Positions 4,727 through 23,358 of a stretch of DNA of 36,908 nt are shown here, piece by piece. Position numbers and translations under genes: made by a program. This DNA is from Caldilineae bacterium (GTDB lineage: Bacteria; Chloroflexota; Anaerolineae; DTLA01): assembly GCA_037446815.1 (NCBI GenBank), contig JBBIHX010000012.1, forward strand, positions 1-36,908, written 5' to 3'. The notes below the pieces were generated by a model. It was not told the DNA's origin and did not search any database. It worked only from the letters and a program-made list of their open reading frames with translations. Within the stretch, counting starts at the first letter, position 1; each line of letters opens with the position of its first letter.

Positions 4727-4755
4727 ACTATACCATGCTTTTGCAAATATGTCAA
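4727..4755 (-). promoter_or_regulatory. Strong sigma70 promoter upstream of the zinc-ribbon gene
   Basis: TTGACA-N17-TATAGT with extended -10 TG. Confidence 0.8.
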
Positions 4756-4767
4756 GCCCTTTTTGTT

Positions 4768-4830
4768 GTAGCCGTACCGGCCGAGAAGCCGCGCGAGGTC
4801 CGCGCCGCTCACATCTCTGGGCAGCCTCAT
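4768..4830 (-). pseudogene. hicA: 5' remnant of a HicA-family toxin gene
   Basis: ATGA overlap with the hicB-like stop. Reads MRLPRDVSGADLARLLGRYGY, a typical HicA N-terminus, then loses similarity before the GSH motif. Confidence 0.7.
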
Positions 4831-5036
4831 GCCACCATGACCTCTTCACGCACCACATGCATGCGGATGAGATCGGGCAAGTCGTCTTCGTCAAAGTGGC
4901 ATTTCACGGCATCCCGGATCGCCGCCTTCAATTCGTCCCAGGTATCGGCTTCTGTAAAGATTGAGTGTCCCAGCGCCCGAGCCGTGTAACCGCCTTCCGG
5001 CGCTTCTTCAATGAGGAGAATTACTTCTTTCGCCAC
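4827..5036 (-). CDS. Short HicB-like antitoxin (69 aa)
   Basis: MAKEVILLIEEAPEGGYTARALGHSIFTEADTWDELKAAIRDAVKCHF is a HicB/RNase-H-like fold pattern. GTG start with GGAGGG RBS. Coupled to the hicA-like start. Confidence 0.8.
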   Translation of the reverse strand: MAKEVILLIEEAPEGGYTARALGHSIFTEADTWDELKAAIRDAVKCHFDEDDLPDLIRMHVVREEVMVA

Positions 5037-5380: not shown

Positions 5381-5420
5381 CAAACAAACAAGAGGGGCTA
5401 CCGCACGGGCGGCAGCCCCT
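5381..5420 (-). terminator. Intrinsic terminator of the hydrogenase operon
   Basis: AGGGGCTGCCGC-CCGT-GCGGTAGCCCCT stem followed by CTTGTTTGTTTG on the minus strand, about 30 nt after the last stop. Confidence 0.65.
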
Positions 5421-5451
5421 CCATCGCCTTGTATATGGGACTACGCTACGC

Positions 5452-6366
5452 TTACTCCACGCTCTCCATCTTGATGTGCCGCCGACTGATGAGGAACGCC
5501 CCGATGGTGGCCACTGCGCTCAGCCCGATGACGACGGCCTCTGCGGGCTGCAGGATGTTCTTCCACGCGCGGGCCAGGGTGGGCGTCGCAACGCTCATCG
5601 GCAGCGCGTAGCGGCCCGGCTCGTCCAACAGGATGCTCAGCCGATTCAGCCCTCCCGCCTGGGTCTCCCCGTAGAGCGCCGCCCGGTCAAATCCGCGCCC
5701 CTTCAGGAACGAGACCCGCTGCTTCGCCTTGTCCAGCAGTTCGTCGCGGCGGCCCCATACCAGAGCCCCCACCGGGCACGTGGTGGCGCAGAACGGCCCG
5801 CCGATGCCGGCGTAGATGCGATCTTGGCAGAAGGTGCACTTGGCCGCCTTGGCCTCGCCGGTGAGCGCATTCGCCACCCGAAGGTGCGGCACGCCATACG
5901 GGCAGAACTGCGTGCAGTAGCCGCACCCGATGCACTTCGCCTCATCGTAGCCGGTGAACCCCCTGGGGTCCTTGTACAGCGCCCCCGAGGGGCACACCGT
6001 TACGCACGCGGCATCGGTGCAGTGCATGCACTGGTAGTTGACGAAATGCCAGTCGGTATTGCTTCGCTTGCTCAGTTTGATGAGCGTCCAGGTATCCGCC
6101 GACAGGCTCCGGGGCGTGTCGTACAGTTTCGCCGCGCCGACCGCCTCCACGGGCAGCCGCGCCGCCGTCTGGGTATCCGCGGGCAGTTTGTTCCATCGCT
6201 TGCAGGCCATCTGGCAAGCGCGGCAGCCCACGCACTTGGACGCATCAAACAGGATGGCGAGCGGCGCATCCGCCGGCGCGGCCTGCGCCAGGCCCGTCGG
6301 CCGTATCGCCCCGGCAGCCAGCAGAAGCCCCGAGAGTTTCAGGAAGTCTCTGCGGTTGATGTCCAT
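5452..6366 (-). CDS. Tat-exported 4x[4Fe-4S] electron-transfer protein (HybA/HupX/FdnH-like) with C-terminal membrane helix
   Basis: NRRDFLK Tat motif. CVGCRACQMAC, CMHCTDAACVTVCP, CIGCGYCTQFCP, CTFC...PFCATTCP. C-terminal hydrophobic helix. Confidence 0.9.
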   Translation of the reverse strand: MDINRRDFLKLSGLLLAAGAIRPTGLAQAAPADAPLAILFDASKCVGCRACQMACKRWNKLPADTQTAARLPVEAVGAAKLYDTPRSLSADTWTLIKLSKRSNTDWHFVNYQCMHCTDAACVTVCPSGALYKDPRGFTGYDEAKCIGCGYCTQFCPYGVPHLRVANALTGEAKAAKCTFCQDRIYAGIGGPFCATTCPVGALVWGRRDELLDKAKQRVSFLKGRGFDRAALYGETQAGGLNRLSILLDEPGRYALPMSVATPTLARAWKNILQPAEAVVIGLSAVATIGAFLISRRHIKMESVE

Positions 6367-6372
6367 AGGCTC

Positions 6373-6909
6373 TTACCTACCTTCCTCACGTCCGACCGTC
6401 GCAAGGGGTTCTCGGGCCTGGGCATTGTGCCGTTCCGCGCGGGGGCGGATTCCCCACCGCGACAATTCGGCCAGCACCCGACCCACCAGCGCGCCCATCT
6501 GCGCGGCGATAGATGGCGACAACTCCAGGCCGGTGTCAATGACCTCAGGCTCCACGCCCACAAGCACCAGTTCCCGCGGGAACGTGCCGCGCAGGCGAGT
6601 CGCCGCCAGCAGGTCCGCCAGGCCCATCTGGTGGGGCGAGATTTTGATGCCCAAGCAGGCGGGCACCTCATCTCCGCTCAGGCGAACGAGGGCCCCAGGC
6701 GGGTTGCCCATCGCCACAGCGTCCACGATGAGCACGCGGTCCGCCTCTTCCATGTAGTGCAACAGGTCCAGCCCAAGGGTTCCCCCGTCCAAGACCTGCA
6801 CGTCGTCTGGGAACTCAAACCGTTCCGCCAGACGCTGCACGACCCGAACGCCCACGCCCTCATCGCGCAGCAGGATATTGCCCAGGCCGAGTACCAACGT
6901 CTTCCCCAC
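6373..6909 (-). CDS. Hydrogenase maturation endopeptidase (HyaD/HybD/HupD family)
   Basis: LVLGLGNILLRDEGVG, DGGT, IVDA, SPHQ motifs. Confidence 0.93.
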   Translation of the reverse strand: MGKTLVLGLGNILLRDEGVGVRVVQRLAERFEFPDDVQVLDGGTLGLDLLHYMEEADRVLIVDAVAMGNPPGALVRLSGDEVPACLGIKISPHQMGLADLLAATRLRGTFPRELVLVGVEPEVIDTGLELSPSIAAQMGALVGRVLAELSRWGIRPRAERHNAQAREPLATVGREEGR

Positions 6910-6912
6910 GGG

Positions 6913-8622
6913 CTACATGCTTCCGTCAATGCGGATGCGCGTGAGTTCGCGCCCGCGGGCGTCCACCACATGCACCGCGCACGCCATGCAAGGGTCAAAC
7001 GAATGAATCGTGCGCAGAATCTCAACGGGCTGCTCCGGGTCCGTTACCGGCGTGCCGATGAGCGCGGCCTCGTAGGCACCCGGCTGGCCTTTGGCATCCC
7101 TGGGCGACGCGTTCCATGTGGAAGGCACAACACACTGATAGTTGGCGATCTTGCCGTCCACAATGTGCACCCAGTGCCCCAGCGCGCCGCGCGGAGCCTC
7201 GTGGAAACCCCACCCTTTGGCCTCTTTGGGCCATGTGGCGGGATCCCACTTCTCGCCGTTGTGCACCTTGAGGTCCCCATCCGCCATGCGGGTGGCCAGT
7301 TCGTCCAGCCAGGAGATGAGTTTTCCCGCGACGACGGCGGTCTCAATACCTCGGGCCGCGGTGCGCCCCAGCGTGGAGAACAGCGCCTCCGCGCCGACGC
7401 CGAGTTTGGCGAGCACGGCGTCCACCAGCGTCTTGACCTCGGGCCGGCCCGCCACATAGGCCACCAGCACCCGCGCCAGTGGGCCCACTTCCATCGCCTT
7501 GTCGTCGTACCGCGGAGCCTTGAGCCACGAGTACTTGCCGTCCGTCTGCAAGAATTCGTAGGGCGGCCTTGGCCCCGTGTAGTTCGGCTGCGTCTCCCCG
7601 TCCCACGGGTGCTTGGACACCCCATCGCCCGCCCCGTACCGATACCATGAATGCGCCACGTACTCGGCGATCTTGGTGTGGTCCAGGGGGTGCAGGGTGC
7701 TCAAATCGCGGTTGAGGATGACCCCCGACGGGAACAGCATCGTGCCTGCCGCGTCAGGGAACTCGCCGTAGGCCAGGAAATTGCCCAAGCCCTCACCCAG
7801 CCCGGCCCACTCCTTATAGAACGAGGCCACGGCGAGCAGGTCGGGGATGTACACCTGGTCCACGAACTGCTTGGCCTTGACGAATAGCCTGCGGATCAGG
7901 GCCAGTTTGTCGGCGTTGATGGCCGTCTCGCTGTCTGGATCCAGCGTGATGGACATGCCGCCCACCAGGTAGGTCTGCGGGTGGGGGTTCTTGCTGCCCA
8001 GAATCGCGTGGACGCGGATGACATCCCGCTGCCAGTCCAGCGCCTCCAGGTAGTGGGCCACGGCCATCAGGTTGGCCTCCGGCGGGAGTTTGTACGCCGG
8101 ATGACCCCAGTAGCCGTTGGCAAACGGCCCCAACTGGCCACTCTGCACGAAGGCGGTGAGTTTGTCCTTGACGGCCTTGAAGTAGTCGGCGCTAGAGTTG
8201 GGCCAATCGGAGATGGATTGGGCCAGTTGGGAGGTCGCCACGGGGTCTGCGCGCAGGGCGCCGGTTACATCCACCCAGTCCAGGGCGTGCAAGTGGTAGA
8301 AATGAATCACATGGTCTTGAACATACTGAATCCCCGCGATGAGGTTGCGGAGGATGCGGGCGTTATCGGGAATCCGAATTCCCAGGGCGTCTTCTACGCT
8401 TCGCACGGAAGCGACGGCATGCACCGTTGTTCAGACGCCTCATATGCGCTGGGCCATGAGCCAGGCTTCGCGGGGATCGCGGCCCTTTTGGATGATTTCC
8501 AGCCCGCGGAACATGGTGCTGGAACTCCAGGCCTCGGCCACGCGCCCGTTCTCCACCTTGGCCTCAATGCGCAGATGCCCTTCAATCCGGGTAACGGGGT
8601 CAATCGCGATTCGCTCGGCCAC
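6913..8622 (-). CDS. Group 1 [NiFe]-hydrogenase large subunit, 569 aa, with two in-frame TGA codons (61 and 64) at the N-terminal CxxC ligands; predicted di-selenocysteine protein
   Basis: ORFs 8440-8622 and 6913-8424 are in the same frame: CAG CGC ATA TGA GGC GTC TGA ACA ACG GTG CAT = QRI*GV*TTVH, matching canonical QRICGVCTTVH. N-term IDPVTRIEGH and MFRGLE, KNPHP, EAPRGALGHW, C-term SFDPCMACAVH plus cleavable tail. AGGAG RBS before GTG 8622. Confidence 0.9.
8368..8427 (-). promoter_or_regulatory. Candidate bacterial SECIS-like hairpins 3' of the two TGA codons
   Basis: ACGGT-GCAT-GCCGT (8414-8427), CGCTTC-CGTGC-GAAGCG (8397-8413), GGGAAT-TCGG-ATTCCC (8368-8383). Confidence 0.55.
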
Positions 8623-8624
8623 TT

Positions 8625-9725
8625 TTACTCCTCCTCTTTCTCCTTGCTGAGACGACTGGCCGCCACCGCGCCCGCGGCGCCGACTACCAGGCCGGCAGCA
8701 GCGCCGATGGCCCCTGCAGCCGCGGGAGAAAGCCCTCCGGCAGCAGCCTCCACCTCGGGGTACGCGCTCGGTGGGGTCAACTGGTGGATGGGCACCGGCT
8801 CATAAGCAGGGCTTTCCCAGAAGTTCGGGGCGGCGCAAGCGATGCATCCGTGCCCCGCGCCGACGGGCCAACTGGTGCCTTCGTTCCAGCGGAGCGTAGG
8901 GCAGTTGTGGAATGCCACCGGCCCCTTGCACCCCATCTTGTACAAGCACCATCCCTTGCGATGGCCTTCATCTCCCCATGCCTGCACGAACTCTCCGGCG
9001 TCAAAGTGCCCGCGCCGCTCGCAGTTGTCGTGAATCCGCCGCCCGTAGGCAAACAGGGGCCGGCCCAGGTCATCCACCGCCGGCAGGCTCCCAAAGGTCA
9101 GGAAATGCACCACCGTTGCGGTCAGGTTGTCCACGTTGAACGGGCAGCCCGGCAGGTTCACGATGGGGACGCCCGAGATCACGTCTTTCACGCCCTTCGC
9201 GCCGGTGGGGTTAGGTGTTGTCGCGGGCCAGCCCCCGTAGAAGGCGCAGGCGCCCACCGTGATAACGGCGGCCGAATGCCCCGCCACTTCCTTGAGAATA
9301 TCCAGAGCCGTGCGCCCGCCGATGCAACAATAGATGCCGTCATCTGCCGTCGGTATGGAGCCTTCAACGACCGTGAGGTACCCGCCCTCGGCGACCGTGT
9401 CCGCCAAGGATTTCTCGGCGCGCTTGCCGGAAGGGGCCATAATCGTCTCGTGGTAGTTGAGGGACAGGGTATCCAGCACCAGTTCTGCGACGGTGGGCCT
9501 GTTGGCGCGGAGCAGCGATTCGGTGCATCCGGCGCAGTCCTGCATCTCCAGCCAGACCACCGCCGGGCGCTTGGCGGACTCCAGCGCCCGCGCGATCCTG
9601 GGCGTGAAACTCGCGGGCAGGGCCAGCGTCCCCGCCATAATCGCGCAGAACTTCAGGAACTCCCGGCGGGATACCCCGTGCTGAGTGAGAGCGGTTTTCA
9701 AGGGGCCTTTCTGGTGTCTCTCCAT
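8625..9725 (-). CDS. [NiFe]-hydrogenase small subunit with Tat signal and C-terminal membrane anchor
   Basis: SRREFLKFC Tat motif. DCAGCTES, VGACA, LPGCP (proximal cluster), IHDNC...CLYKMGC (distal), C...SWP...HGCIAC (medial). Hydrophobic C-terminus. GGAGG RBS. Confidence 0.95.
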   Translation of the reverse strand: MERHQKGPLKTALTQHGVSRREFLKFCAIMAGTLALPASFTPRIARALESAKRPAVVWLEMQDCAGCTESLLRANRPTVAELVLDTLSLNYHETIMAPSGKRAEKSLADTVAEGGYLTVVEGSIPTADDGIYCCIGGRTALDILKEVAGHSAAVITVGACAFYGGWPATTPNPTGAKGVKDVISGVPIVNLPGCPFNVDNLTATVVHFLTFGSLPAVDDLGRPLFAYGRRIHDNCERRGHFDAGEFVQAWGDEGHRKGWCLYKMGCKGPVAFHNCPTLRWNEGTSWPVGAGHGCIACAAPNFWESPAYEPVPIHQLTPPSAYPEVEAAAGGLSPAAAGAIGAAAGLVVGAAGAVAASRLSKEKEEE

Positions 9726-9933: not shown

Positions 9934-9962
9934 ATTATAGCATGCTATACGATAAATGTCAA
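9934..9962 (-). promoter_or_regulatory. Consensus sigma70 promoter of the hydrogenase operon with overlapping palindromic operator
   Basis: TTGACA-N17-TATAAT with extended TG. Perfect palindrome TATAGCATGCTATA at 9936-9949. Confidence 0.8.
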
Positions 9963-10118: not shown

Positions 10119-13100
10119 TCAAGGTATCTCCCAGGTGCATCCCTCGGCGGCCAGAATCCAGTATCCCTTGCCGGGCTCCAGCAGCCGCAGGTCGTTGACG
10201 AAGTCGGGCGCGCCCGGCCTGTACCGCCGCCATGTGCCGCCCCACGCGCTCGCGTCGTAGGTCATCACCGCTACGATCTTGTCGGCGATGGGGGCCAGGG
10301 CGGTCTCTGGACTGCGCGGCTCCGTGGCGGGGAACCCCACCATGTTCCACCCCGCATACAGCGGAATCTGTGTCCCGCTGGGCGGCTGGCCCTGTACCCT
10401 CAGCGTTGTCGGCGCGATGACCTTCACCCACATCCCCATGCGCTCATCCACAAACGTCAGCGAGTTGGCTCCCGGCGGCATCAGCGGGCTGTACGATTTC
10501 CAGGTTCCCGCGCTCGCGTCCCAGTAGTACACGCTCACCAAGACATCCGATATGGGCCCGAACAGCACATCTGGGTTATTGGAACTGGGCACCACGGGCA
10601 GCGAGATGAGGTTCCACCCCTCGTGAAGGGGCACGCCGGGCGTCGTGGCCGTCCCCGTAGCGGTGGGGGTGGGCGTGGGCGTATCCGTCGGCGCGGGCGT
10701 AGGCGTCCACGTTGCCACGGGCGTGTCCGTCGGCGTGGGCGTCGCGGTCGGCGTCCGCGTCGCCGTGGCCGTGTCCGTCGGCGCGGGCGTGGCGGTCGGC
10801 GTCCACGTCGCCGTGGGCGTGTTCGTCGGCGCGGGCGTCGCGGTCGGCGTCGCGCTGGGGATAGGCGTCGGCGTGGGCGTCGGCGTCCACGTTGCCGTGG
10901 GCGTGTCCGTCGGCGTGGGCGTCTCGCTGGCCACCGAATACGCCACCTGCAACAGCGGCCGCTTGGACACGTCCGGATACTCCGCCGAGGCGAATCGGTA
11001 CTCCACGGAGCCGCCCGTGGACGCGCCCCTCACCACCAGGCCGAAGTTCTCGCTCGGGTGCGTTACCCAATGCCGCACCGAATCGGAGACGTCCACCGTT
11101 ACGGCGCTGTTGGCCGCGTCCATGTGGAACGTCGTGCCGGTGGCCGTGCGGTCGTAGGTGGTTCCGTTGCAGCCATCAACTTCCCACCGCTCGCCGGCCC
11201 GCGGCTGCTGCCATGTGGCCTCCGTAGCGACCCAGGGCCGTAGCACGCGGTACACCAGCCCGTCAAACATGTTGCCGTTGCTCTGGTACGTGGCGTACAG
11301 CGTGAGCGACGCGCTGATGACGTTGGCGCCCGACGGGATGGACGACACATCAAACCGCACCAGCCCCGCCATCACGTCGTAGGTGCGGACGCTGAAGTGC
11401 GTGAGGCCCGCGAAGTTGCTCGTGGGCTGCCACTGATCCATGTACGTGTCCACGCTCCCCGTGTAGCCATTGGCGCCGAAGCGGAACGTGGCCGTCTGCA
11501 CGGGGCCGCCCGGCGTGGGCGTCGGCGGGACAGGCGTGGCACTCGCGGTATGGGTTGCCGTCGCCGACGGCGTGGGCGAAGGCGTCGCCGTGGGCTGCGG
11601 GGTGCCGGTGGGAGTGGGCGTCGCCGAGCCGGTGCGGGTCGCGGTTGGCGTCGGCGAGGCGGTGGGTGTCCGCGTGGGCGTCGCCGTCGGCCCGCCGGGC
11701 CAGTATTCTATGATGAGTTTCGGGCGGATAGAGGCGTTGGTATTCTCCGACGAGGCAAACGTGTAGCCCACCGAGTTGCCCCCCGCGTCCCGCAGCAATA
11801 GCCCCAAGTTGGTCGCGGGCACGGCTACCCAGTTCCGCACAATGTCGGTAACATCCAGGCTGACCCACACGTTCGTGATGCTGGGCGGCGGCTGCTGCAT
11901 GTCCGTGGCCGTGGCCGAGCGGTCCTGATTGGGCGGCTCCGTGCTGTTGCAACCGGCCAGGCCCCAGAAGGTACTGCTGGTGGCGCGGTTCCACGTGGCG
12001 CCCGACTCCGTCCAAGAGCGCATGACCTGATATGGGCTGAAGTAGGCCGAGCCGGCATTGCTTCGCGCCGTGAGGTAGATTTCCAGCCGCGCCGAGCCTA
12101 CCGACGCGCCCGCGGGCAGCGGCGACAGGTCAAACCGTAGCAGCGCCGAATGGATGTCCTGCCGCCCGTAGTCGTAGTTGCCGCCGCGAATGCTGAAGGT
12201 CGGCTCGTTCCCGTAGTTGGTATCCTTGGCCCACCAATCTATCAGCGTGTCGGTCGCGCCCGTATATCCATTCAGCCCCTGCTGGAGCGTGAGGACGGTA
12301 GGCGGCGTGGACGGCGTCGGCGTCGCCGTCGCCGTGGGGGCAGACGTCGGCGTGCGCGTCGGCGGCTGGCCCTCCAGGGTGTACTGGACAACGAGTTTCG
12401 GCCGCACGGCTCCGTCCTCGTAGTCGGCCCCCGCCAGGCTGTATTGCACCAGTTCGGCCATGGTGCACGTGGACTTCAGCACCAGGCCCTGGTTGTTCGC
12501 GGGGTCCAGCACCCATGCTTGCACCATGTCCGTTATGTCAAAGGTGTACCAGCGGTTGGTGTACTGGAGCCAAATCTCTTCGCCGCCGATGTTGGAGCGG
12601 TCGGTGCCGATGCCGTTGCAGCCGGGCGTGGCCCAGGGCGCGCTGCTGGTGGCGCGGTTCCAGGTGGCCTGCGAGTCCACCCACGGCCGCAGGACGGCAT
12701 AGGGCCGGGCGCACATGTAGGCGCTGTTGCTCTGGCCTACCGTGTACACCTGGAGTTGCGCGTTCAGAATGGTGGCATTGCTCGGGATGCTGCTCACGTC
12801 AAAGCGCAGGAGCGATGCGATGATGTCCCCCGAGCGCACGATGAGGATCGTGTCCCAGTTGTAGTTGGAATCGTCGCTGTAGTCCGAGATGTACGTATCG
12901 CGCACGCCGCCGTAGCCATTCAGCCCCTGCTGGAAGGTAACGGTGGTGGTGGCGGGCGTGGGGCCGGGCGTGAACGTGGGCGTCTGCGTGGGTGTGGCGC
13001 TGGGCGTGCGGGTTGGCGGGGCCGGGGGGCCCGGGGTGAAGGTCGGCGGCCGCGGCGGTGTGTTGCTCGGGGTGGCAGGGACAGGCGTCGGCGTCGGGGT

Positions 13101-14765
13101 GGACGTCGGGCCGGCGCTCCCGCTCTTGGTAACGTCCACGAAGTGGATGTACTCGTCGCCGTCGCTGCGTCCGTCAAGGTAGAAGTCGCTCCCCCCGGCC
13201 AGGCTGTTGGCAAACCGCGCGTTGGGCAGGACGAAGGTCGCTTTCTTCCACGTGAGGCTGTTGGTCTTGTATACGCTGCCGCCGAGCCGCTCGCCCGACG
13301 TGGAGTCGTAGAACAGGTCCCAGCGGTCGGTCCCGCGGTCAAAGTACGTAACGGTAACCGTTACGGTCTGGTTGCCGTTGTACAGGTACCCATCGTCCAC
13401 CTTGAAGAACATGTAGGGATTGCCGGAGGAAGCATCGGTGCGGCGGGTGATCCACGACTCCTTGCCCACCCACGAGCCGCCCAGGTTCACCCCCTGCTCC
13501 GTCTTGTTGGTGATGGCGCAACCGGAAGTGGTGGTGGGGAAGTTCAGCCCTGTGCGGTAGGTTACGACCACCGTCTTGCCGCCGGGCACCGAATCGTCCT
13601 GGTACAGCCAGAAACTGAAGTTGCCGCACTCCGGATACCACGAATAGCCCGACTCGCGCATGGCCACCCACACGCTGGGCGTGTCCTGCAACGTCCGCCC
13701 CAGGTATCGGTTGGCGAACTCCAGGATGGGGAAGTTGTAGTAGCGGATGTTGCCCTGGGCGTCCTGCAACAGCCACCCGCGCCAGTCCTGGGGCGAGTAG
13801 TCAAGGGTAAGCCAGGTGTTGTGGCGATGGAGGACGCCGAGCACGCCCCAGTAGGTCTCCTCTTCGGTCGGCGTCATGTACTGGTACGCCTCTTGTCCGG
13901 TGGGATACGTCAGGCTCCACTTGTGGATGGGGTCCACCGTCCCGCAACCCTCAAAGCCGGGCTTGTCGGGGATGTACTGCGAATCCGCGTCGGCCTGCAT
14001 CGCGGCGTGGAAGTCGCCGATGCCGTAGGTGAGCGCCGCGTAATCGGTCCACTCCTTGCGCTCGCAGATGTGCTGGAAGCGCGGCGTGCCCGGAATCACC
14101 ACGCGGGTCGTGTGGAAGGATTGGCCGTACATGTCCACAATCTGCTTGACGGTGCTGACCCACAGCGGCCCCGAAAGCCCGTTGTCGCGCATGCACTGAT
14201 CGTAGGCCTCCACGCAAGGCTGTGTCTCGCCGTACACGCCCACGCCCATAATGACGAACTCCAGGCGCGGGTCGCCGTCAAAGCGCTGGCCGAGGGCGCG
14301 CACGAAGTTGCCGTACTTCTGCAAATAGGCCCAGTGCCAGTACTTGGGAATCTGCTCCGAGCCGCAGGTCAGGACCGCATCGGGGTAGCGGCTCTGGAAC
14401 CACGAGGGGACCATCAGGCCGCCCGCCTGGCCTGCGTAGGTCTGCAAGTGCAGGGCAGCCGGCTTGCCTTTGGCCCACTGGGAGGCCAGGAAGTTCTCAA
14501 TCAGGTCCCAGCGATATTGCCCCTCGCTCGGCTCCAGTTGCTTCCAACTGAAGGTCATATGCCCGCCGACGATGGGCCATTGAGCGGGGTCCAGGTTCGC
14601 GCTGTCGCGGGCCACGTACACGCCCGGCCGGGGCGTGGCGGGGGCGGCATTGCTGCGAATGCCCTGCGCCGAACTGTAGTTCCGCCCACCCGCGCTCAGC
14701 CCGACGACGGTGAAGCACACCACCACCGCCGCAATCCAGAGAAAGCGAGATCGGCTTGTCCTCAT
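10119..14765 (-). CDS. Large secreted multidomain protein (1548 aa): GH-A/beta-galactosidase-like N-terminal domain, three DNRLRE-like domains, Pro/Thr linkers, C-terminal GWN-repeat domain
   Basis: Signal peptide [16 protein letters not shown] with [24 protein letters not shown]. Three repeats of QGLNGY.G..DT.I.../LLRFDVS/ATW/RPKL. PT-rich spacers. EGWNLISLP and AGWNMVGFP. Confidence 0.8.
10640..10925 (-). repeat. Degenerate coding tandem repeat encoding a Pro/Thr linker (about 16-aa unit [16 protein letters not shown])
   Basis: Repeated GGCGTCGGCGT/GGCGTCCACGT blocks; translation is TP-rich. Confidence 0.8.
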
Positions 14766-14979
14766 GTCGCAATCGCTCCTGATGTCGGATGTAAAACCCC
14801 TAGTGTAGAGTGTATCCGTGTATCTTCCACGCCGCAATGGGGAAATGGTACCATGGGCGCTTCGGAGCGGGCCGTTCCGACGGTGGCGCGGCCTGCCCCG
14901 TGGGGGGCATTCACCCTCCTGTAACGCCGCGAGCCCGCGCCGAGATACGCCCTGGCGCACGCAACGGCAGTTGCAGGCC

Positions 14980-15380
14980 GTCATTGCGAGGGCGTGAGGC
15001 ACCCGAAACAATCCCACGCCCCCCATCCGCCCCATCTGTGCTATCCGTGGATAGCGGTTCTCCATTCGCGTGGATTCGTGCTATTCGCGGTTACACGAAC
15101 CGTCATTCTTCGCCGCTTCGCGGCTCAGAATCTTGCCCCCCATCCGCTCCATCCGTGCTATCCGTGGATGCAACCCTGGAGATGCTTCGCCTTCGGCTCA
15201 GCATGACAGACGGGGTCAACGTGCGACGCACCTCGGAGGTGCGTCGCACGTGAACTCCCTCACTCCACCCCTCTCCGGACGGGCGACCAGGCGCCCACCG
15301 TTATCCCGAGCGGCGAAGAATCTTATCCACCATCCGCGCCATCCGCGCTGTCCGTGGATACCCGTCCTCTATTCGCGGTT
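14980..15380. repeat. Dense cluster of mixed REP-like repeats
   Basis: GTCATTGCGAGGG...AATCCC, CTTCGCCGCTTCGCGGCTCAGAAT, TCGCCTTCGGCTCAGCATGACA, three (A/G)TCCGTGGAT-ending units, and a 33-bp palindrome at 15219-15251. Confidence 0.8.
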
Positions 15381-23170: not shown

Positions 23171-23253
23171 GCCCGCGTGGTGGAATTGGCATACACAGCA
23201 GGTTGAGGGCCTGTGCCGGTGACGGCGTGGAGGTTCGAGTCCTCTCGCGGGCA
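23171..23253 (+). tRNA. tRNA-Leu(GAG)
   Basis: Acceptor stem GCCCGCG/CGCGGGC-A. D loop TGGTGGAATTGGCATACAC. Anticodon arm GCAGG-TTGAGGG-CCTGT. Long variable arm. T arm GGAGG-TTCGAGT-CCTCT. Followed by CCT, so CCA is not fully encoded. Confidence 0.95.
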
Positions 23254-23358
23254 CCTTCATGCGCGACCGTTGCGACCGTGGGCCAGACGAGGTCGCGTGC
23301 GCCGTGGGCCATTCGGTTCCAACGTCCATGGAGCCGAGTCCGAAACCCTACAAGACCC

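Follow-up and report, generated by a model that had tools for sequence, protein, structure and literature searches.

Selenium in the characterised [NiFeSe] hydrogenases occupies a single terminal nickel site in the C-terminal L2 motif, a site which engineering has shown to be special. In the group 1a enzyme HysA of Desulfovibrio/Desulfomicrobium (PDB 1cc1, 2wpn), as in the archaeal FruA and VhuU, the terminal L2 ligand (C576 equivalent) is a UGA-encoded selenocysteine (Sec, U). For the N-terminal L1 motif, whose first ligand is terminal to Ni and whose second bridges Ni and Fe, Takano et al. 2026 (PMC13582414, from which these two roles are taken) predicted in silico 16 UXXU sequences in Group 4b, and that article also cites, from Baltazar 2011, two CXXU sequences of Group 1 in which the bridging ligand is Sec, described as exceptions. 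The same two positions have been replaced artificially, one at a time, in E. coli Hyd-1 (C76U and C79U; Evans et al. 2021), no double C76U/C79U variant appearing in the available passages of that work (PMC8020662). The gene analysed here encodes a [NiFe] hydrogenase large subunit and lies in a stretch of 36,908 nucleotides (the window: contig JBBIHX010000012.1 of assembly GCA_037446815.1, a Caldilineae bacterium of the Chloroflexota), and both of its L1 ligand codons are TGA. Sequence comparison shows a conserved double recoding of this Group 1 uptake hydrogenase gene, directed by a selenocysteine insertion sequence (SECIS), and points, with a probability of about 0.78, to a di-selenocysteine L1 motif. 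The elements concerned are:

6913..8622, minus strand: large subunit of a Group 1 [NiFe] hydrogenase, GTG start, 569 amino acids (aa) with both UGAs read
8440..8442, minus strand: UGA codon 61, first L1 ligand, equivalent to C76 of E. coli Hyd-1 and terminal to Ni; predicted Sec
8431..8433, minus strand: UGA codon 64, second L1 ligand, equivalent to C79, bridging Ni and Fe; predicted Sec
8443..8445, minus strand: ATA codon of Ile60, directly 5' of the first UGA, the sole ATA among the 31 Ile codons of the gene
8397..8413, minus strand: SECIS-like hairpin, 6-bp stem and 5-nt loop CGUGC (8407-8403)
6970..6996, minus strand: L2 motif DPCMACAVH, both ligands Cys (TGC/TGC)

At L1 the minus strand reads CAG CGC ATA TGA GGC GTC TGA ACA ACG GTG CAT, and direct reading of codons 61 and 64 bears out a preliminary description of this DNA, which had placed TGA at both L1 Cys codons of an otherwise intact 569-codon frame with an all-Cys L2 motif. 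In fact, translation of 8622..6916 with TGA as U gives the 569-aa frame with these two recoded steps only and no other stop. The product covers the whole PF00374 model (796.5 bits) and its L1 aligns with QRICGVC of PDB 3myr; against solved structures it scores 754 bits for 3myr and 697 bits for 4c3o, while the NiFeSe HysA-type structures give 306-342 bits. The HysA-type models remain below cut-off (NF045518, 410 vs 780; NF045520, 226 vs 470), as do the NCBIfam subgroup models HyaB (660/1101) and HybC (632/969). The closest solved structure, 3myr, which we take to be an Allochromatium-type enzyme of group 1e, is all-Cys, and so are the Geobacteraceae relatives, unlike this gene. With canonical HysA the protein shares the Group 1 heterodimer fold, but the medial cluster of HysA is a [4Fe-4S] cluster with Cys in place of Pro, whereas SWPV of the present small subunit aligns with NWPV of 1h2a and retains the Pro. 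Moreover, HysA carries Ser for the canopy Asp118 according to PMC8020662, whereas Asp103, aligned with position 118 of 4c3o, is kept here.

Genes with TGA at one or both L1 positions, for which the preliminary description had proposed to search, proved to be numerous. A pattern scan of GTDB genomes requiring TGA at the second ligand returned, among the 120 matches listed, 113 real hydrogenase L1 motifs and 7 chance ones, with at least 55 UxxU and at least 58 CxxU genes in Chloroflexota, Nitrospirota, Desulfobacterota, Bacillota and a few others; two of the 113 are divergent CxxU genes which may not be Group 1 (L088, a Myxococcales metagenome-assembled genome, 37% identity and a very long branch; L045, a Coriobacteriia one, 32%). 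L2 was reached in 63 of the 75 loci with full flanks, with Cys-Cys in 63/63, while in 6 the frame went beyond the end of the locus. When TGA was instead required at the first ligand, a scan of metagenomes gave 15 chance and 101 real motifs among the 116 matches listed, and all 101 have TGA at the second ligand too. In addition, a protein-based sample of the class (401 genomes, the unpublished genome G376 being counted only in the denominators of this sample and of the selA comparison below) contained 107 genomes with a homologue and 122 homologous places, of which 36 have two TGA, 18 one TGA, 2 another stop elsewhere and 66 none; all 36 UxxU and 18 CxxU places and 39 of the 68 others were read. 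The TGA form is carried by 50 of the 107 genomes, and UxxC was seen neither in this sample nor in the 101 real metagenome matches listed. Within one Nitrospirota family (23 genomes) two TGA were present in 20/21 matches, their positions within the gene being mostly unread, and the remaining match stops short of the motif. Geobacteraceae group 1 large subunits are among the database homologues, at 69-70% identity, and the nearest homologues with a name on the trees come from Anaerolineae, so that the source genome is presumed to belong there as well. Two all-Cys places have off-ligand stops and are probably broken genes or errors (L367 of G195, TAG at codon 27; L368 of G431, TAA at codon 138). 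The UxxU gene L056 of Thermoflexus sp. lies only 0.014 changes per column from the all-Cys protein P0009, a very recent switch. The complete genome of Desulforudis sp. Tu-874 has two copies (L068, L122) of a CxxU large subunit of a second lineage, so that experiments on the bridging-Sec form might be possible in this organism.

Both TGAs occur in 4/4 congeneric genomes and in independent genome and metagenome records, and contigs from 4 public runs span the site, with no difference at 8431-8442 among the differences listed. The ratio of nonsynonymous to synonymous change (dN/dS) over the 505 codons downstream of the UGAs was 0.037, 0.048 and 0.069 against three congeners, thus giving no sign of the relaxed selection which the preliminary description had suggested looking for. 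A pseudogene or a sequencing error could be invoked on the grounds that gene callers, as that description had anticipated, give N-truncated proteins of 497-506 aa (22/120 top database homologues), but in >100 records, which span several phyla, it is the ligand codons alone that carry the stops, dN/dS stays below 0.07 and the hairpin tracks the TGA. As for a genome-wide reassignment, TGA terminates 519/1589 coding-like open reading frames (ORFs) of the source genome, which has tRNA-Trp(CCA), so TGA is an ordinary stop elsewhere, as had been claimed. On these comparative data, which already refute the three possibilities, the double TGA is neither a sequencing error nor a pseudogene, and what is left for them together with a code change is negligible.

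In the SECIS-like hairpin, 23 nt separate the loop from UGA64 and 32 nt from UGA61. In the class sample it was intact in 54/54 TGA genes and in 0/39 Cys-only genes, and in 48 distinct TGA rows 288/288 stem cells were paired, 42 of them with changes on both sides. None of 500 shuffles reached this pairing and no slid register came near it, the highest mutual information of any pair within 120 nt belongs to a pair of the stem, and the amino acids on both stem arms change together while the stem is kept. The bacterial SECIS model given in PMC13188914 has a 3-9 nt loop with G at position 1-2, a 4-16 bp stem, a spacing of 16-37 nt and a free-energy minimum (MFE) no higher than -7.5; the hairpin falls within it for both UGAs, with -12.6 kcal/mol for 8430-8390. 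Across 21 UxxU genes of Chloroflexota, codons 61-80 show the least synonymous change (0.20-0.21 vs a mean of 0.44, sd 0.08). A bulged form of the hairpin appears in the Nitrospirota genes, and a looser rule allowing bulges, applied to both lineages, is passed by 43/47 UxxU, 29/42 CxxU and 5/25 CxxC genes, about 8 of 11 independent pairs agreeing. A lower stem, GGCGUCU/AGACGCC, was discarded, being in the MFE fold but not among the top covarying pairs.

The codon preceding UGA61 is a further feature of the double motif. ATA represents 5.3% of the Ile codons of the source genome, and it precedes UGA61 in 35/36 UxxU genes of the class sample vs 2/18 CxxU and 3/31 CxxC at the same site, in 49/55 UxxU vs 2/58 CxxU of the GTDB matches listed, and in 84/101 of the real metagenome matches listed. 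This context holds in the second lineage, about 48% identical. When the motif columns are left out of the tree, agreement is seen in about 8 of 10 independent pairs (median p 0.008, range 0.004-0.07). Nitrospirota genes use ATA often in any case, mostly for 26-65% of their Ile. In the source genome ATA also stands at the Ile-Sec junctions of FdhA and HdrA, so that UGA61 is subject to the context selection seen at accepted Sec codons; both names are assumed from sequence motifs, that of FdhA also from its operon context. The effect may be that of a ribosome pause or of the P-site tRNA. A pattern search for more FdhA genes was set aside as mostly chance, since only 8 of the 30 loci read, out of a list with 40 further matches, were real FdhA (6/8 with ATA). 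Re-initiation at the out-of-frame ATG of ATA-TGA was likewise rejected, as the frames it opens in 9 genes are 10-45 codons long and their products are not conserved. One literature search, confined to its listing, showed no report on such an effect of the codon, and no ATA context was seen in the available text of PMC13582414. The Val codon before UGA64 (8436-8434) avoids GTG (2/54 TGA vs 11/39 Cys genes). Other in-frame TGA candidates of the source genome are located at C205:1581+, C39:21324-, C11:26720-, C15:10476-, C13 (selD), C117:7542+, C64:11689- and C70:4309-, most of the full set with G-loop hairpins. From their motifs we take them to be Grx/AhpF-N-like (TPTUPYC), peroxiredoxin-like, HdrA-like, FdhA and SelD proteins, two paralogues with CGURPPKGG and one EGEGUAG protein of unknown kind; the ab initio scan is not exhaustive, since SelD and UGA64 were missed by it.

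The source genome, whose assembly is 93.6% complete, has one canonical tRNA-Sec with G73 (69.9 bits), selA (587 bits), selB (358 bits) and selD (373 bits, carrying its own TGA). With hypB, hypC, hypD and hypF above family cut-offs (hypC via Pfam) and hypA- and hypE-like ORFs read by eye on contig C36, the whole selA-D and hypA-F set named in the preliminary description is accounted for. On the same contig (C36:77-13633), directly upstream of the hyp genes, lies a second, all-Cys hydrogenase of 473 aa with partners of 179, 571, 1035 and 127 aa, a set presumably akin to the electron-bifurcating NiFe-HydABCSL. No tRNA-ReC was detected in the source genome by ARAGORN, Rfam, nhmmer --max, regular expression or covariance model, and cysS is single, a second copy not having been found; therefore, Sec is the only residue with a decoding route found in this genome. 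The covariance model, built from 12 Nitrospirota second hits (GCA anticodon, U73) and applied to 63 genomes, recovered tRNA-ReC in 12/28 Nitrospirota UxxU genomes, 0/28 Chloroflexota UxxU genomes and 0/7 others, while canonical tRNA-Sec was present in 24/28 Chloroflexota UxxU genomes. selA was found in 48/50 TGA-bearing vs 42/57 Cys-only genomes, which are kin and not independent. In three Nitrospirota loci (L301 of G085, L303 of G058, L311 of G059) the tRNA-ReC gene is directly upstream of an ORF starting DARGxGCPKPV, presumably TusA/YedF-like, and several Nitrospirota tRNA-ReC genes adjoin LysR-type regulator genes.

U61 was never observed without U64 (0/101 real metagenome matches listed, 0/54 TGA genes of the class sample), so the bridging Sec would be the base state and the terminal Sec an add-on. 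CxxU genes keeping ATA (L142, L355, L356) look like revertants, as does the CxxC gene L023, which keeps ATA and part of the hairpin. The L1 states are mosaic on the tree, with 24 changes on 114 rows and 12 for U61, and the FastTree trees being unrooted, the change counts (25 on one tree; 24, 12 and 15 on the other) do not tell gain from loss. A search for residues co-adapted to Sec in 112 main-lineage rows gave nothing but scattered positions tracking phylogeny, which were rejected, and among the active-site residues of these rows none co-varies with U61. According to PMC8020662, both engineered Hyd-1 variants are active, C79U at 13% and C76U at 3% of native activity, a difference which parallels the asymmetry between U64 and U61, and both have a lower Michaelis constant for H2 and are nearly inactive at 10% O2. 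The small subunit of the present enzyme reads CAGC, the standard proximal-cluster motif, and GACAFYGG. The O2-tolerant group 1d enzymes are characterised by supernumerary proximal-cluster cysteines, which are absent here, and this absence together with the O2 sensitivity of the Hyd-1 Sec variants leads one to expect an anaerobic enzyme. A benefit in O2 tolerance would not be expected, and the likelier gain is a tuned affinity for H2 or a tuned catalytic bias.

Besides Sec at both codons, two other outcomes of the recoding have to be weighed. The SECIS could recode both UGAs while Cys enters at one or both of them, the enzyme then having 0-1 Se or being a mixture, and the source of Cys could be a missed tRNA-ReC (SelC*) or a Cys-charged tRNA-Sec under scarce selenium. 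In this context, PMC13582414 cautions that Cys may be inserted at UXXU and gives ~56% as the share of genomes with Group 4 UXXU that have tRNA-ReC; tRNA-ReC is also present in the 12 Nitrospirota genomes mentioned, where Cys insertion is a live alternative, and the source genome is incomplete. Nevertheless, the source genome has a single cysS, tRNA-ReC was found neither there nor in the 27 further UxxU genomes of Chloroflexota, and the upkeep of UGA, ATA and hairpin just for Cys would be a cost without chemical gain; we consider Cys insertion in this gene improbable, though to be kept in mind. Alternatively, UGA61 could be mainly a translational checkpoint, with poor Se-dependent read-through and most ribosomes stopping at a 60-aa peptide, in which case the second Sec would throttle synthesis and not catalysis, a view which Sec in the full-length product would not contradict. 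UGA61 was seen only together with UGA64 and is distant from the hairpin, C76U is the poorest engineered variant (PMC8020662), no active-site residue co-varies with U61, and U61 switches often (the 12 changes on the unrooted tree), all of which would suit a checkpoint. On the other hand, UGA61 has its ATA context in common with the catalytic Sec codons of FdhA and HdrA, which suggests that efficient insertion is selected for, and UxxU is fixed across the Nitrospirota family with two TGA in 20/21 matches, so that this second possibility seems more doubtful still than the first.

A number of observations also detract from the di-selenocysteine reading itself. Folding of the region from single sequences is no better than that of shuffles (z -0.35 to -1.16), and since these scores are not significant it is the covariation that speaks for the hairpin. 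The 32 nt of UGA61 exceed the ~17-27 nt loop spacings of the other Sec candidates of the genome; under the looser hairpin rule 5/25 Cys genes pass and 4/47 UxxU and 13/42 CxxU genes fail; codons 186-225 are nearly as low in synonymous change as codons 61-80; and 6 of the 75 full-flank TGA loci close the frame before L2. The tRNA-ReC negative of the source genome refers to a 93.6% complete assembly, tRNA-ReC (GCA, U73) does occur in 12/28 Nitrospirota UxxU genomes, and the ReC model was trained on those same 12, with only 63 candidates scored per genome. selA is uninformative at the class level, and its co-occurrence with TGA carries little weight, because 355/401 genomes of the class have it. 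Finally, a single engineered Sec at either position is slower and less O2-tolerant than the native enzyme (PMC8020662). The claim of the preliminary description that both TGAs are recoded, most simply as Sec, is nonetheless upheld by conservation, purifying selection, the covarying SECIS, the Sec machinery and the lack of any tRNA-ReC found, and selenium incorporation at codons 61 and 64 is inferred from this combination.

Under the di-selenocysteine reading, the system would work as a TAT-exported (twin-arginine translocation), membrane-attached Group 1 H2-uptake hydrogenase in which both N-terminal Ni ligands are Sec. SelB bound to the single hairpin 8413-8397 would deliver Sec-tRNA(UCA) to UGA61 first and then to UGA64, the rare ATA before UGA61 helping the more distant decoding through a pause or a P-site tRNA effect. 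In the Ni-Fe(CN)2CO site built by the Hyp proteins, U61 would be the terminal and U64 the bridging ligand, alongside the two Cys of L2; the tail of the large subunit would be trimmed by the endopeptidase. Electrons would pass from the small subunit to the HybA/FdnH-like protein and on to a cytochrome b whose gene lies outside the operon, most likely the FdnI-like gene on contig C15. The remaining elements of the operon are:

8625..9725, minus strand: hydrogenase small subunit, 366 aa, TAT signal and C-terminal hydrophobic tail
6373..6909, minus strand: HyaD/HybD-family maturation endopeptidase (TIGR00140, 169.3 bits, cut-off 151.8)
5452..6366, minus strand: 4Fe-4S dicluster protein, HybA/FdnH-like, TAT signal and C-terminal hydrophobic tail
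9934..9962, minus strand: sigma-70-type promoter-like site, TTGACA-17-TATAAT with extended TG, 12/12 consensus; a consensus match only
5391..5422, minus strand: intrinsic-terminator-like hairpin at the operon end, 14 pairs; a consensus match only

The earlier statement that partner genes, promoter and terminator are all intact holds for the genes, since the small subunit, protease and FeS genes are open frames with family matches (for the small subunit, TIGR00391 at 440 bits and TIGR01409 also above cut-off), whereas promoter and terminator are no more than consensus matches, the terminator-like hairpin being weak by itself because 3 such sites were found vs 3.4 expected. In the large subunit, His551 presumably precedes the tail removed by the protease, a cleavage site which we assume from the family. 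The locus has the features of a Group 1 uptake enzyme, namely L1 and L2 at homologous positions (L1 being UGA), a TAT small subunit with a Pro at the medial-cluster position, and an endopeptidase, but lacks the cytochrome b/NrfD partner within the operon; no membrane cytochrome b or NrfD-type gene was found in the window or in the read regions of 4 congeners, a lack which the preliminary description had not pointed out. Operons of close relatives carry a HyaC-, HybB- or FdnI-like gene, and the FdnI-like gene on C15 of the source genome, part of a formate dehydrogenase operon, is 57% identical to the copy in a relative's operon, its product thus appearing to be the likeliest membrane partner of the hydrogenase. 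Upstream of the operon, 10119-15065 (-) encodes a protein of 1648 aa in which DNRLRE/CBM96 repeats occur together with long Thr-Pro linkers and a weak match to GH42, a similar tail being found upstream in the genomes G003 and G004. At ~4750-5035 (-) there is a short ORF, presumably HicB-like, overlapped by a truncated and presumably HicA-like start; the 161-aa frame there has no Pfam or NCBIfam match, and the spacer is ~460 bp longer than in genome G004, which suggests a small insertion. A tRNA-Leu(GAG) gene is located at 23171-23255 (+).

In relation to what has been published, the claim that a two-selenium motif was unknown in natural hydrogenases has to be narrowed, since PMC13582414 already describes predicted UXXU sequences in Group 4b, and it may hold for Group 1, where no published report of UxxU was found by a search weak on subscription journals and bioRxiv supplements. 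The Group 4b enzymes share with the present one the N-terminal UXXU, the all-Cys C-terminal motif and one downstream SECIS, but they belong to an ion-translocating complex with antiporter-like subunits, whereas this is a TAT-exported uptake enzyme. N-terminal Sec is found at 54/122 places of the class sample, in contrast to ~0.2% in Group 4; UxxC, present in Group 4e, was not seen here; U61 depends strictly on U64, whereas no clear stepwise path was found in Group 4; and the Chloroflexota carriers differ from the ~56% of Group 4 UXXU genomes in that no tRNA-ReC was found in them (PMC13582414). The two Group 1 CXXU sequences of Baltazar, as cited in that article, have the bridging Sec at the second L1 position in common with this gene but contain one Sec only, and compare with at least 58 CxxU and at least 55 UxxU genes among the GTDB matches listed here. 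No frequency of N-terminal Sec in Group 1 was found in print, the BSepDB text and supplement hold no hydrogenase entry, and a 2026 selenoproteome review, in its available part, gives among hydrogenases only UxxC alpha subunits. What seems to be new, as judged from the genes compared, is a Group 1 UxxU without tRNA-ReC found, the strict dependence of U61 on U64 and the ATA context. The wider proposition, a widespread Ni(Se,Se,S,S)-Fe Group 1 centre served by one SECIS and an ordinary tRNA-Sec, acquired bridging-first and with AUA as a second cis signal acting also in FdhA and HdrA, has in our view an even chance of being right.

The two Ni-ligand sites which the characterised [NiFeSe] enzymes leave to Cys, one of them bridging, would here have been repeatedly chosen by evolution in a standard uptake enzyme, one whose expression poses fewer difficulties than that of a Group 4 complex. 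Such an enzyme would provide a natural test of the effects of a bridging or double selenolate on H2 affinity, bias and O2 damage and, in a system without tRNA-ReC found, of whether one bacterial SECIS serves two UGAs and whether the 5' codon matters. Moreover, databases store such double-UGA hydrogenases as truncated proteins, and with the truncated TGA form in 50 of the 107 homologue-bearing genomes of the class, the H2-uptake capacity of Anaerolineae and Nitrospirota is likely to be undercounted.

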